In this document: in pieces, positions 27,001 through 30,000 of the stretch
How the letters are laid out: every line of letters starts with the position of its first letter
Numbering within the stretch: position 1 is the first letter of the stretch
NCBI GenBank assembly: GCA_965248195.1
Contig: CBDFIQ010000002.1
Span: 2,400,001-2,464,000, forward strand
Direction: 5' to 3'
Length of the DNA: 64,000 nucleotides
Origin: Longimicrobiales bacterium
GTDB taxonomy: Bacteria > Gemmatimonadota > Gemmatimonadetes > Longimicrobiales > Gaopeijiaceae
Position numbers: made by a program

Positions 27001-30000
27001 AGGCCCTGGAGGCCACATCACGCACCAGCATCCTCGGCGTCTACCGTTACATGATTCGCCGTTATGAACGGGAATTGGATGCTCGAGGCCGCCGAGTGAG
27101 GAACGAGCAGAGCCGAATCCTCCGAGGGCAGGTACTGGCCAGGCCCTTCCGCAGCCTGGACGTCGAGAACCTACTCGAGAATGGGTTCGTGCGCCCCGAC
27201 GGCGAGGGGAACATCTACTACGCACCCGACGCCGATGTCCTCCTGTCGGATGCCTTCCTGGACACGCACTGCATGAGCCTGGCAGAGGGAGACGACGAAG
27301 CCGAGGGCCTTCTCGGGTTACGGTTCGAGCCGACGGAGGATCGCGGAGTCCCGGATATCCGTGGCGTCCTATGGCTGGACCCGGCGAACGCGGAGCTTCA
27401 GTGGCTGGATTATCGTTACGAGTTCCTGGACGTTCGCAACTCGGAGAGGCTCGGGGGAAGAATTAGATTTCATGGCCTCCCCAACGGGACGTGGATCGTA
27501 CGCGAGTGGTATATCCGCATGCCGCTCCTCCAGGCTTACCCCGGGCGAAGGCGACCGCGGCTCATCGGGCTCAAGGAAGAAGGTGGCGTGGTCTTACGCG
27601 TAGACAACCTGAATGGCGATCCCGTTCTCGGCTCGGGGGCCGGTATCATCGAGGAACCCGGGCTCGAGGACTAGGATCCGGGGCGAGACGCAGTGGTGGC
27701 CTGCGCCTAGCGCTTCGGGAACGGGGCCCGGCCACACAAATTTTGGTTCCTCCCCCCTGGTCCTTCCGAGCATGCAGGAGTAGTGTGTGGACTTCCTCCG
27801 CTAGCAAAAAACTTTCAGAACACAACAAAGAGGATGAGGGGATGAAAGGCAGAACCATGTTCGTGATACCTGTTCGCGTGAACGTCACTCACTGGGTCGT
27901 GACCCTTCTGATGGCCGTCACGACGTTGAATCCGTGGACGCCCGAAATCGCCGCGCAGGAACCGCTCGATTCGGTCATTCCCTTGGACTCCATCGTGGTG
28001 AACGTGCTTCGGGGCACCGTCGGATTGGACCGCGCGCCCTACGCAGTATCGGTTTCCAGTGGGCAGGCGCTGCAACTGGGCAACACCGGTTTCTCCCTCG
28101 ACGAGGCCCTTCAGGGGATCCCCGGCCTCCAAATTCAGAACCGGTACAACTATACGGTGGGTGAGCGGATCTCCATCCGTGGTTTCGGGGCCCGATCCCA
28201 GTTCGGCGCGCGCGGAATCAAGATTCTCGTGGACGGCATTCCGGCCACGATGGCCGACGGACAGTCGACCTTGGACCATCTCGACATCGGGTCGCTTGGA
28301 CGCGCCGAAGTCTTGCGCGGACCGGCCGCGGCCATATACGGCAATGGCGGTGGTGGGGTGCTGAGCCTCGAGACGGCGGCACCGCCCGACGTGCCCATAC
28401 GCCAAGAGGCCAAAGCCGTCGTCGGAGAAAACGGGCTCATGCGATTTCAGAGCACGACGTCCGGTACCCAAGGCGGGACGTCGTACCTCGTGAACGTCTC
28501 ACATCTGACGTATGACGGATTCCGAACCGTCGCCGACAGCAGCTTGTTCGTTGGGGAGCGCTCCGACAGCAGCTTGTACGGACTAGCCAGACGCGTGAAC
28601 GTGAACGGCCAGGTGGCTTTGGAAGCCGGTGCGGGACAGCTCCGTATTACGGCCAACTTCTTCGATCTGGCCGGAGAGAGTGCCGGGGGCCTCAACCGGA
28701 CGGCCATGTACGTCGATGAGTCGCTCAACGCGCGCGGTGGCGGATTTGGCAACGTCGCGAGGAACGCGCGGAAGGATCTGCATCAGGGGCAGCTGGGGGC
28801 CACCTGGTCGGGGCCTGTCGGGGCTCTCAACGCCGAATTTACCGGGTGGGGGCTCTTTCGGAGGATGGACAATCCCATCCCACCGCGGATCATCGACCTC
28901 AATAGAAACGCGTTCGGCTTCCGGGGGGTGGTCTCCACCGAGAGCAGTGGCGATCCGGGAGAGGTCACGCTGCGGGCCGGAATCGACCTCGATTTCCAGC
29001 GCGACGACCGGGTGGAACATTTAAACGTCGCGGGTACGCGGGGTACGCTGACCAAGGACCAGTTCGAGACCGTCACCGCGACAGGGCTCTTCCTTCAGGC
29101 AACCGCCACGCTCACGGAGCGTGTTTCGCTCATGGGGGGAGTGCGTTACGACCGATTCGACTTTGAGGTCGATGATCGGTTGCCGGCCGATAACTCCGGT
29201 GATCGGGTTATGGACGAACTGAGCCCCACCGTGGGCCTCGTCGTGGAGGCGAGCCCCACGCTGTCCGTCTTTGGCAACTTCGCCACGTCACTGGCCACTC
29301 CCACGACCACGGAGCTGGCCAACACCCCGTCCGGCGGAACCGGCTTCAACCCCGATCTGAATCCGCAGACCGGTAACACAGGAGAAGTCGGATTCCGAGG
29401 TCAGGCGAGCGGCCGCTTCGCGTTTGAAGCGAGCGCGTTCCTCAGCAAGCTCCAAAACGAACTCGTCCCGTTCGAGACCGCCGCGCAGGACGGCCGCGTC
29501 TTCCACAGGAATTCCGGGGAATCGACGTATCAGGGGCTCGAGGCCTCGGTGCGGGCGGTTCTTCCCCAGGGCGTCTCGGGCCAACTTTCCTACACGCTCG
29601 TGGACGCTAAATTCGACGAGTTCGAGGTAGAAGGCGAGGTCTTCGACGGCAACTTCATTCCCGGGTTGGCAAGGAACCGTCTCGAAGGCCTGCTGCGTGT
29701 GACCCAAGGTCCATGGTACGGCGAGGTTCGCGGCGACCACGTGGGAAAAGTTCGCACCAGGGACGACAATGACCCCGGGACGGACGCGAGACAATACACG
29801 CTTTGGGACATCCGAACCGGTCTCTCCGGGCAGCGTGTAGGCAATGTCGTGCTGGCACCCTTCGTCAGCCTTACAAACGTCTTCGACGAGGTGTACGCAG
29901 CTGCCGTGGCGGTGAACGCCTTTGGAGGTCGGTTCTTCGAGCCGGGCCCGAGGCGCGCGTTTTCCGCGGGGGTGAGCGCGGCGTTCTAGAGCGGAGCGGC

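Follow-up and report, generated by a model that had tools for sequence, protein, structure and literature searches.

The window analysed here is a stretch of 64,000 nucleotides from the genome of a Longimicrobiales bacterium (family Gaopeijiaceae, phylum Gemmatimonadota; assembly GCA_965248195.1), which comprises 4.86 Mb in two contigs of 1.5 and 3.4 Mb and has an estimated completeness of 91.8%. An open reading frame on the forward strand, with an ATG start codon at 27842 and a stop codon at 29987-29989, is predicted to encode a TonB-dependent PQQ transporter. The gene and its parts, with the codons of residues discussed below, are as follows.

27830..27841, forward strand: GAGGATGAGGGG, purine-rich and ribosome-binding-like, immediately 5' of the ATG (read from the sequence)
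27842..29989, forward strand: predicted gene for a PqqU-type TonB-dependent outer-membrane PQQ transporter, 715 aa plus stop (open reading frame and translation)
27842..27958, forward strand: likely signal peptide, aa 1-39, with a hydrophobic core and the end AAQ as putative cleavage site
28031..28357, forward strand: Plug domain, aa 64-172, including F121 (Pfam PF07715, 67.9 bits)
28202..28204, forward strand: codon of F121, equivalent to PqqU Y99; alignment column F in 132/134
28400..29986, forward strand: beta-barrel, approximately aa 187-715 (strands in the AF2 model; Pfam PF00593 over aa 313-660)
28772..28774, forward strand: codon of K311, equivalent to PqqU K274; column K in 50/134 and E in 76/134, here K as in E. 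coli
28859..28861, forward strand: codon of R340, equivalent to PqqU R304, which forms a salt bridge to a PQQ carboxylate; column R in 133/134
29009..29011, forward strand: codon of R390, equivalent to PqqU R365, which forms a salt bridge to a PQQ carboxylate; column R in 134/134
29495..29497, forward strand: codon of R552, equivalent to PqqU R536 in loop 8; column R in 115/134

The Pfam domains and the AF2 model (pLDDT 91.5, pTM 0.89) describe an N-terminal plug within a beta-barrel, the barrel family PF00593 scoring 134.9 bits. The N-terminus is modelled at low confidence, with a helix at aa 15-28. After the likely signal peptide, a segment resembling a TonB box, DSIVVNV, is found at approximately aa 49-55, and aa 51-58 align with aa 29-36 of E. 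coli PqqU. Searches 5' of the gene found no Rfam family and no sigma-70-like promoter. An upstream RNA element was dropped as a candidate, the Rfam match inside the coding sequence being to a lncRNA at chance level. Nothing related to PQQ was recognised among the ten open reading frames around the gene, which encode two peptidases, a CarboxypepD_reg protein, a NAGPA-domain protein, an IS3-type transposase pair, a PLP enzyme, an ABC-2 permease and two proteins without a Pfam match, and the closest quinoprotein gene lies 64.6 kb away. Contigs from RNA libraries cover most of the coding sequence at ≥90% identity in all four runs, from three studies, and cover is zero in the three bins 5' of the start codon in each run, which is no evidence for a transcript boundary. 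This is a weak hint of expression, as contaminating DNA or close relatives could give the same contigs.

The best NCBIfam family for the protein is PqqU (NF041535) at 278.7 bits, with the next family at 129 bits, and in a sequence search of the PDB the YncD/PqqU chain was found at E 1e-64 and the next chain at 1.7e-13. The survey's finding, that this receptor has PqqU as its sole strong match, is thereby borne out. The score is well below the PqqU equivalog cut-off of 1200 bits; that cut-off was passed by E. coli alone among 14 control genomes, and the model is adjusted to proteins closely related to the enterobacterial one. A Foldseek search with the AF2 model placed 9c4o (PqqU with PQQ) first (E 2e-57, TM 0.84/0.91, rmsd 2.2 Å), and the next different protein was FoxA (5.8e-35, rmsd 4.6 Å); 6v81 and 9c4o are the nearest solved relatives by both sequence and fold. 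The transporter and E. coli PqqU are also reciprocal best matches between the two genomes, and the PqqU model gave 143+135 bits for the transporter gene and 50+42 for the next in this genome. Because the score is below the cut-off and the aligned proteins share 29% identity, orthology to PqqU rests on the signature residues and the fold.

To read the signature residues, 134 sequences, E. coli PqqU among them, were aligned with MAFFT. Munder et al. 2025 (PMC12124388) give the PqqU signature as an aromatic residue (Y, F or W) at position 99 together with R304 and R365; Y99 stacks on PQQ, F or W is accepted in its place, and mutation of each of five PQQ-contacting residues is stated to impair PQQ-dependent growth in E. 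coli. In the alignment, F121, R340 and R390 occupy the three signature positions and K311 and R552 those of the semi-conserved contacts, and hence all five functionally important residues are present. About 35 open reading frames in the genome have a Plug domain, and the signature is found in this one alone; thus, the earlier description of "one TonB-dependent receptor" holds for the signature and not for the receptor class. The assignment, which had relied on 27% identity, now also has the signature, the fold superposition and the reciprocal best match behind it.

The two proteins are alike in their plug and barrel, in length (715 aa here and 700 aa in E. coli) and in carrying Lys, not Glu, at the K274 position. 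They differ in the presence of F for Y99, and Q84, Q308, N477 and Y481 of E. coli PqqU are replaced here by V, N, T and N, respectively. According to the available text of PMC12124388, growth of E. coli with single substitutions at Q84, Q308 or Y481 was similar to wild-type growth; a substitution is listed as N447E, and no clear result is stated for N477. A further difference is that a yncE-like neighbour is absent here.

The potential users of the cofactor were counted as loci matching PF01011 at E≤1e-30, PQQ_2/PQQ_3-only proteins being left out. The 69 matched segments make up 45 eight-bladed quinoprotein loci, 42 intact and three broken, which occupy 93 kb or 1.9% of the genome. A total of 47 genes with PQQ repeats had been claimed for this genome; the large set was recovered but not the number itself, probably because proteins with only PQQ_2 or PQQ_3, such as BamB, went uncounted here. 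An N-terminal hydrophobic segment, mostly ending in A-x-A or AQ, is present in all 42 intact proteins. CxxCH haem motifs were found in seven proteins of the set, where six with a cytochrome c domain had been listed, and there are six strong and five weaker matches to the six-bladed GSDH family. A PUL-like clustering of quinoprotein genes with TonB-dependent receptors was considered and rejected: for 10 of the 45 loci the distance to a Plug match is at most 10 kb, compared with 6.6 ± 2.7 at random, and as many as 10 were obtained in 275 of 2000 shuffles, so there is no excess.

Of the 45 paralogues, only about 14 to 17 (about a third) retain the complete canonical set of catalytic and metal-binding residues, and describing the whole set as PQQ dehydrogenases was therefore an overstatement. 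Many of the paralogues might lack the cofactor, perform other chemistry or act as binding proteins, in which case the dependence on PQQ would be far narrower than 1% of genes even with a true PqqU; we regard this as unlikely but a serious possibility. The GDH-like proteins were compared at the active-site positions W404, T424, K493 and D466 of E. coli Gcd, and the E. coli sequence was checked to carry these residues there. The catalytic Asp (D466) is replaced by Asn in 12 of the 22 scored; among the 21 aligned to Gcd, nine have Asp and 12 Asn, and the broken locus L011, which has an in-frame stop and was examined apart, has Asp. However, the PQQ-stacking Trp (W404) and K493 are invariant in 21/21 and T424 is kept in 20/21, and the Asn variant, WNYD, is conserved in 119 of 120 homologue clusters at 75-94% identity, which points to a selected function and not to decay.

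In the ADH-like group, about 15 of 22 lack, at the aligned positions, the Cys-Cys pair and the Glu and Asn that bind the metal, although alignments at 25-36% identity may misplace such ligands. The Cys-Cys pair is present in four (L031 and L033-L035), and DxD or DxDE in 19/22, with DYA in L037 and NND in L050 and L051; the second Asp of the motif is retained in nearly all paralogues. In an NCBIfam scan of the quinoprotein frames, from which L011 was left out, only five of the 45 scanned frames pass the TIGR03075 (methanol/ethanol dehydrogenase) cut-off of 480, all from the 22 ADH-like (L033, L034, L035, L037 and L038), and L034 matches PedH (6zcv) at E 7.6e-116. None pass TIGR03074 (membrane-bound glucose/quinate dehydrogenase), for which the best score is 432.8 bits and the cut-off 832; matches begin at about profile position 147 and the N-termini are single signal-like segments, the five-helix membrane anchor of that type being absent. 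Without exception, the 21 full-length ADH-like and the 21 scanned GDH-like proteins match 'acido-empty-quinoprotein group A', a family presumably named for quinoprotein homologues of lineages without PQQ synthesis, at 159-549 bits, but every match is under the cut-off of 650, and a literature search for 'empty-quinoprotein' gave zero matches. With so many departures from the canonical active site among the paralogues, it is uncertain how much of the metabolism depends on PQQ.

It is improbable that the protein only resembles PqqU and imports something else, such as a siderophore, a different aromatic anion, or a lanthanide in free or chelated form. A bioRxiv preprint of 2026 (10.64898/2026.07.10.737718) describes 74 TonB-dependent transporters of the lanthanide type, some in Gemmatimonadetes, that are annotated as YncD/PqqU and have PqqU as their top PDB match; the low score against the equivalog model would fit such a protein, and the genome's lanthanide-type (DxD) quinoproteins mean that lanthanide uptake should be needed. 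However, by the description in the preprint the mis-annotated, LutH-like transporters lack the PQQ-binding residues, all five of which are present here in columns that, for the signature, are near-invariant across the 134-sequence family, and all other solved transporters are far removed from it by sequence and by fold. A second YncD-like receptor, the only other one in the genome (C1:566254-568491), is without the PQQ signature and appears to fit the description of a lanthanide transporter better. No open reading frame for a small periplasmic partner was found beside it, its upstream neighbours looking like membrane proteins.

Genes for PQQ synthesis were sought in the whole genome. The PqqC model (TIGR02111) gave no match at E≤10 in a six-frame search, and PqqA was not found (best 10.8 bits, E 6). 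Neither PqqB (best 125 bits, cut-off 245) nor PqqE (best 105.2 bits, to a radical-SAM protein, cut-off 381) has a credible match, and there is a single lone PqqD domain; the best PqqB-, PqqE- and PqqD-like matches are unlinked (C1:1447131, C1:720634 and C2:867025). As a positive control, the PqqC model was run on Gemmatimonadota genomes: 32 of 151 score above its cut-off, and none of the 16 others sampled from this family, at least nine of which are single contigs. These results reproduce the reported scores, the absence of pqqB, pqqC and pqqE and the isolated PqqD-domain gene, and extend the earlier control of 24/121 genomes and 0/9 in the family. In a genome without pqqA-E, quinoproteins can only be loaded with scavenged PQQ. 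That the organism makes PQQ itself, from unassembled genes or by an unrecognised route, and recaptures its own cofactor as PQQ-producing pseudomonads do, is very improbable: the completeness of 91.8%, the existence of PqqB- and PqqE-like proteins and the co-occurrence of transporter and PqqC elsewhere in the phylum would allow for it, but PqqC and PqqA are missing, the weak matches are scattered and under their cut-offs, the assembly is in just two contigs and the family as sampled is free of PqqC.

The transporter was found in 102 of the 151 genomes and PqqC in 32. Transporter and quinoprotein occur together in 90, the transporter alone in 12, a quinoprotein alone in 14 and neither in 35, a co-occurrence test that is uncorrected for shared ancestry. 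The transporter is carried by 65 of the 72 genomes with quinoproteins but without PqqC. It is also present in 25 of the 32 PqqC-positive genomes, and therefore its presence alone does not mark a scavenger. The tallies include one unpublished genome (G057), and without it each affected count is lower by one. PqqU without PQQ synthesis is the commonest genotype in the sampled genomes of the phylum. Munder et al. 2025 (PMC12124388) likewise report PqqU in 183 Gemmatimonadetes, which are of the same phylum and have the same residue signature as the transporter, describe PQQ scavenging as widespread and give only 23% of PqqU encoders as able to make PQQ. Hence, PQQ scavenging through PqqU in this phylum is already published, and the novelty of the scavenger reading was overstated, as was the mention of a host as PQQ source, on which none of the present evidence bears; the reading itself is supported by the PqqU signature and fold and by the absence of synthesis genes with a working control and closed genomes from the same family. 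Only the number of enzymes is unusual here, as the 45 eight-bladed loci compare with 11, 11, 7, 5 and 6 in the five next richest sampled genomes, which were chosen by first-look candidates and then fully re-scored.

We consider it probable (about 0.75) that the transporter is of the PqqU type and imports free environmental PQQ to the periplasm of a cell that is auxotrophic for PQQ and has an exceptionally large PQQ-dependent repertoire for periplasmic oxidation. In the predicted binding step, PQQ would enter the pocket between plug and barrel, where F121 would stack on it and R340, R390, K311 and R552 would hold its carboxylates, and the pocket would be closed over by extracellular loops. One of the TonB-ExbBD systems of the cell, whose genome encodes seven TonB C-terminal domains, would then pull the plug and free PQQ into the periplasm. 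A step across the inner membrane would be unnecessary because the users are exported proteins. These would be quinoprotein-type dehydrogenases, 42 intact eight-bladed and at least six six-bladed, all of which begin with a signal-peptide-like segment; several have a fused cytochrome c or the DxD motif of the lanthanide type. Their activity is likewise predicted. PQQ is of a size that would let it pass porins when its concentration is higher. PMC12124388 states that PqqU becomes essential only when PQQ falls below about 100 nM, and the physiological weight given to the pathway here is a prediction.

E. coli resembles this organism in having periplasmic quinoproteins and no PQQ synthesis. However, it has two quinoproteins (Gcd and YliI), and the transporter described here would serve far more, approximately 50 candidate enzymes. 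Marine heterotrophic Thaumarchaeota offer a second comparison, as a few percent of their genomes encode diverse exported PQQ-type dehydrogenases, some with DYD/DxD motifs (Aylward and Santoro 2020, PMC7300363). In contrast to the 45 loci and lack of synthesis here, they have 4 to 19 per MAG and PQQ synthase is said to be encoded.

We tentatively suggest, while thinking it rather doubtful in this full form, that at least 48 exported quinoprotein-type enzymes, approximately 2% of the genome, are loaded through one gate, maybe among the largest cofactor-auxotrophic sets described, and that they include a conserved marine clade of NYD GDH-like proteins. In this clade Asn takes the place of the catalytic base of DYD and the lanthanide-type Asp is kept, which could reflect a different mechanism or a role other than that of a dehydrogenase. 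No new principle is added by the scavenging described here. It would be an extreme case of cofactor cross-feeding, with a large periplasmic oxidation repertoire dependent on a single importer and on neighbours that produce PQQ. One paper on the Gaopeijiaceae makes no mention of PQQ or TonB, and the marine Gemmatimonadota of this family are seldom cultured. With about 50 PQQ-type enzymes, no synthesis and lanthanide-type sites, nanomolar PQQ and lanthanides in the media may be worth supplying in cultivation. If the suggestion is true, PQQ together with lanthanides would act for this marine lineage as a keystone resource held in common, and likely as the ingredient missing from its culture media.

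The best match of the window protein among 18,950 NCBIfam models was PqqU (NF041535) at 278.7 bits, far under the equivalog cut-off of 1200 and well above the 129 bits of a generic siderophore-receptor model. Against all PDB sequences, YncD/PqqU (6v81, 9c4o) was matched at E 1e-64, the next chain being ShuA (1.7e-13). An AlphaFold2 model made with 98 homologues (mean pLDDT 91.5, pTM 0.89) was used for a Foldseek search. Its top match was the cryo-EM structure of PqqU with PQQ (E 2e-57, TM 0.84/0.91, rmsd 2.2 Å), with YncD second and FoxA as the next different protein (5.8e-35, rmsd 4.6 Å). 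In the reverse search of the genome with the PqqU model, the transporter gene was the best match (143+135 bits; runner-up 50+42).

The decisive test for PqqU identity is the published residue signature, which matters here because a rival class of lanthanide-type transporters is mis-annotated as PqqU. According to a preprint (10.64898/2026.07.10.737718), 74 such transporters, some from Gemmatimonadetes, are annotated as YncD/PqqU with 6V81 as top PDB match and lack the PQQ-binding residues. Munder et al. 2025 (PMC12124388) report that PQQ-dependent growth of E. coli is slower with K274E, R304E or R365E and has a longer lag with R536E or Y99A; their criterion for PqqU in other genomes is an aromatic residue at Y99 together with R304 and R365. 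All five PQQ residues are present in the window protein, as judged by an alignment of 134 sequences, comprising the window protein, E. coli PqqU (gene taken from NC_000913.3) and 132 full-length representatives of a 1.84-billion-protein library:

PqqU Y99: F121 in the window protein; F in 132/134 sequences
PqqU K274: K311; K in 50 and E in 76 of the 134 sequences
PqqU R304: R340; R in 133/134
PqqU R365: R390; R in 134/134
PqqU R536: R552; R in 115/134

The only other YncD-like receptor of the genome (contig C1:566254-568491; L004:274-2511) also has 6v81 as best PDB match (E 7e-21) and keeps none of Y99, R304 and R365. Its sequence fits the description of the mis-annotated lanthanide transporters; no small periplasmic partner gene was found next to it, and the upstream ORFs resemble membrane proteins. 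Therefore, one of ~35 Plug-bearing ORFs in the genome qualifies as PqqU, and the survey's finding of a single PqqU-like importer was borne out by family model, sequence, fold, the five residues and the reciprocal match.

The transporter gene, its domain and its neighbours are as follows (window coordinates):

27842-29989, forward strand: transporter gene, an open frame of 715 codons with an ATG start and a TGA-free body
amino acids 64-172 of its product: Plug domain (Pfam, 67.9 bits)
26499-27674, forward strand: ORF directly upstream, 391 aa, with CarboxypepD_reg as sole domain (43.8 bits)
31826-33279, reverse strand: IS3-type transposase pair, one ORF matching HTH_Tnp_1 and the other an rve integrase core; it lies downstream of the transporter at a distance of 1.8 kb

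A TonB-dependent receptor barrel was also recognised in the product (Pfam, 134.9 bits). The N-terminus has a hydrophobic segment with AAQ at its end, then DSIVVNV, which aligned to the start of mature E. coli PqqU; a signal peptide and a TonB box are predicted from this segment and the alignment. A purine-rich stretch lies just 5' of the ATG, and searches upstream of the gene gave neither an RNA family nor a promoter-like site. SusC-type receptors often carry a CarboxypepD_reg domain N-terminally; in this case it belongs to a separate protein, encoded on the same strand 167 bases before the transporter start. None of the surrounding genes is related to PQQ, and a distance of 64.6 kb separates the transporter gene from the closest quinoprotein locus. 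In G045, a PqqC-positive genome of the same phylum, a transporter homologue (its C2:17969-19960, E 4.7e-79) is followed 204 bases further, on the same strand, by a match to the quinoprotein model PF01011; this (C2:17969-21270) was the only transporter-quinoprotein adjacency noticed among the matches listed.

DNA near-identical to the transporter stretch is present in sequencing runs of several studies. Contigs of four RNA libraries from three studies covered, at ≥90% identity, 18-23 of its 30 bins, all inside the coding sequence except in X16, where the final bin falls beyond the stop codon. These contigs weakly hint that the gene or its close relatives are transcribed, with DNA carry-over as a possible source.

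Genes for PQQ synthesis were sought by six-frame profile searches of the genome (4,861,469 bases, two contigs). PqqC had no match at E≤10, PqqE reached 105.2 bits against a cut-off of 381, PqqB 125 against 245, and PqqA 10.8 bits (E 6); a single PqqD domain scored 32.8 bits. The three weak pqq-like matches are unlinked to each other. As PqqC was found in none of 14 control genomes, the model was run over 151 Gemmatimonadota genomes (150 and the present one), and was above cut-off in 32 of these. None of the 16 other members of the present genome's family (Gaopeijiaceae according to the survey) gave a match, and at least nine of those 16 assemblies consist of one contig. The lack of synthesis genes claimed in the survey was thereby reproduced; very probably it is genuine and characterises the family.

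With the current PF01011 model, whose 595 positions span the whole propeller, 69 segments of the genome were matched, which correspond to 45 eight-bladed quinoprotein loci (L009-L053). Three are broken:

C2:2820927-2822956 (L011): a conserved position carries an in-frame TGA, and the reading frame changes close to the N-terminus
C1:909574-911551 (L030): split by a frameshift
C2:461636-462469 (L032): 277-aa fragment

The loci were divided using NCBIfam and Pfam into 23 resembling glucose dehydrogenases (GDH-like) and 22 resembling alcohol dehydrogenases (ADH-like). The best model of the former was the membrane-bound glucose/quinate dehydrogenase family (180-433 bits; cut-off 832), full-length matches starting downstream of that family's membrane anchor; the latter matched the methanol/ethanol family best, five being above the cut-off of 480. 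At the N-terminus of each of the 42 intact proteins, just ahead of the propeller, is a single hydrophobic segment that in most cases ends in A-x-A or AQ; these proteins are therefore probably exported. Median pairwise identity is 49% among GDH-like and 36% among ADH-like proteins (maximum 88%), which points to old and diverse paralogues rather than recent copies. Together the open frames occupy 93 kb, or 1.9% of the genome. On the 1.50-Mb contig C1, which holds 31% of the bases, lie 23 of the 45 loci, including a tandem array of four (L018, L024, L030 and L022; C1:903804-913822) and five that share 46 kb (C1:1235938-1281797) with four Plug-domain ORFs.

Active sites of GDH-like proteins were scored against E. 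coli Gcd, the membrane glucose dehydrogenase, for which nine residue numbers all agreed with the E. coli sequence; its active-site positions include W404, T424, K493 and catalytic D466. W404 and K493 are kept in 21/21 and T424 in 20/21. At position 466, 9 of the 21 aligned have the Asp and 12 have Asn. The Asn-type loci (12 of the 22 GDH-like loci scored) are:

L017 and L020-L030 (for example L028, C1:255831-258002): W-N-Y-D instead of W-D-Y-D

The Trp that stacks on PQQ, the Lys and the second Asp are retained in all 12. Among 120 clusters of L028 homologues (75-94% identity), of which some derive from marine metagenomes, 119 had WNYD, and the Asn form is thus, on sequence grounds, not a product of decay. 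Among ADH-like loci, Asp-x-Asp is kept in 19/22 and the Cys-Cys pair only in L031 and L033-L035. L034, aligned to the lanthanide enzyme PedH (6zcv; E 7.6e-116), retains this pair, the GGE glutamate, the Asn and the D-W-D motif. In ~15 ADH-like loci, NGC and LDxDE align at the canonical Glu and Asn regions; this subgroup includes the six proteins with a cytochrome c domain fused before the propeller and an N-terminal CxxCH haem motif (L039, L041, L042, L043, L045 and L049). A seventh CxxCH is C-terminal (L037). In classic quinohaemoprotein alcohol dehydrogenases, by comparison, the cytochrome c domain is C-terminal.

About 14 to 17 of the 45 loci are predicted to have a fully canonical active site. 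The 47 PQQ dehydrogenases counted in the survey are therefore better read as 45 quinoprotein-family loci. Further candidate PQQ enzymes, absent from that count, belong to the six-bladed soluble glucose/sorbosone dehydrogenase family, with five weaker and six strong matches (293-430 bits):

C2:686250, 2513019, 1140004, 2025168 and 2355520; C1:407991

One six-bladed match lies 342 bases from the eight-bladed L012.

Across the 151 genomes, the transporter (E≤1e-40 to the window protein) was found in 102, including 15/16 of the same family, and eight-bladed quinoproteins in 104; these counts include the unpublished genome G057, without which each affected count falls by one. Ninety genomes had both, 12 only the transporter, 14 only quinoproteins and 35 neither of them, an odds ratio of ~19 that is only descriptive because the genomes are related. 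The transporter occurs in 25/32 PqqC-positive genomes and in 65 of the 72 that have quinoproteins without PqqC. Thus, the scavenger genotype is the commonest state in this sample, in agreement with Munder et al. (PMC12124388), whose set of PqqU encoders includes 183 Gemmatimonadetes and has synthesis genes in just 23% of all its members. What stands out in the present genome is the scale of its quinoprotein set. It had 76 first-look candidates, other genomes at most 26; when the five next richest by this measure were re-scored (PF01011, E≤1e-30), they had 11, 11, 7, 5 and 6 matches against 45. A precedent for such expansion is described for heterotrophic marine Thaumarchaeota (PMC7300363), with 4-19 PQQ dehydrogenases per MAG and a PQQ synthase reported.

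The genome combines a PqqU-fold transporter carrying the PQQ-contacting residues, TonB homologues (seven C-terminal domains) and probably exported quinoprotein-family proteins with no pqq synthesis genes. By analogy with E. coli structure and genetics, PQQ would bind between plug and barrel, stacked on F121 and held at its carboxylates by R340, R390, K311 and R552; the loops would close over it, TonB-dependent plug movement would release it to the periplasm, and it would there load apo-enzymes along with Ca or a lanthanide. Most aligned homologues have Glu where the window protein has Lys at the K274 position, which, under a hypothesis of PMC12124388, suggests no metal co-transport. At high external PQQ, porin diffusion may be enough, according to the same source.

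The survey's observation was confirmed and its reading is supported; we put the probability that the organism is a PqqU-based PQQ scavenger at roughly three in four. Such scavenging is known in kind, and the transporter is another PqqU member in a phylum for which PMC12124388 already reports it; what deserves attention is the exceptional number of paralogues and the conserved NYD clade.
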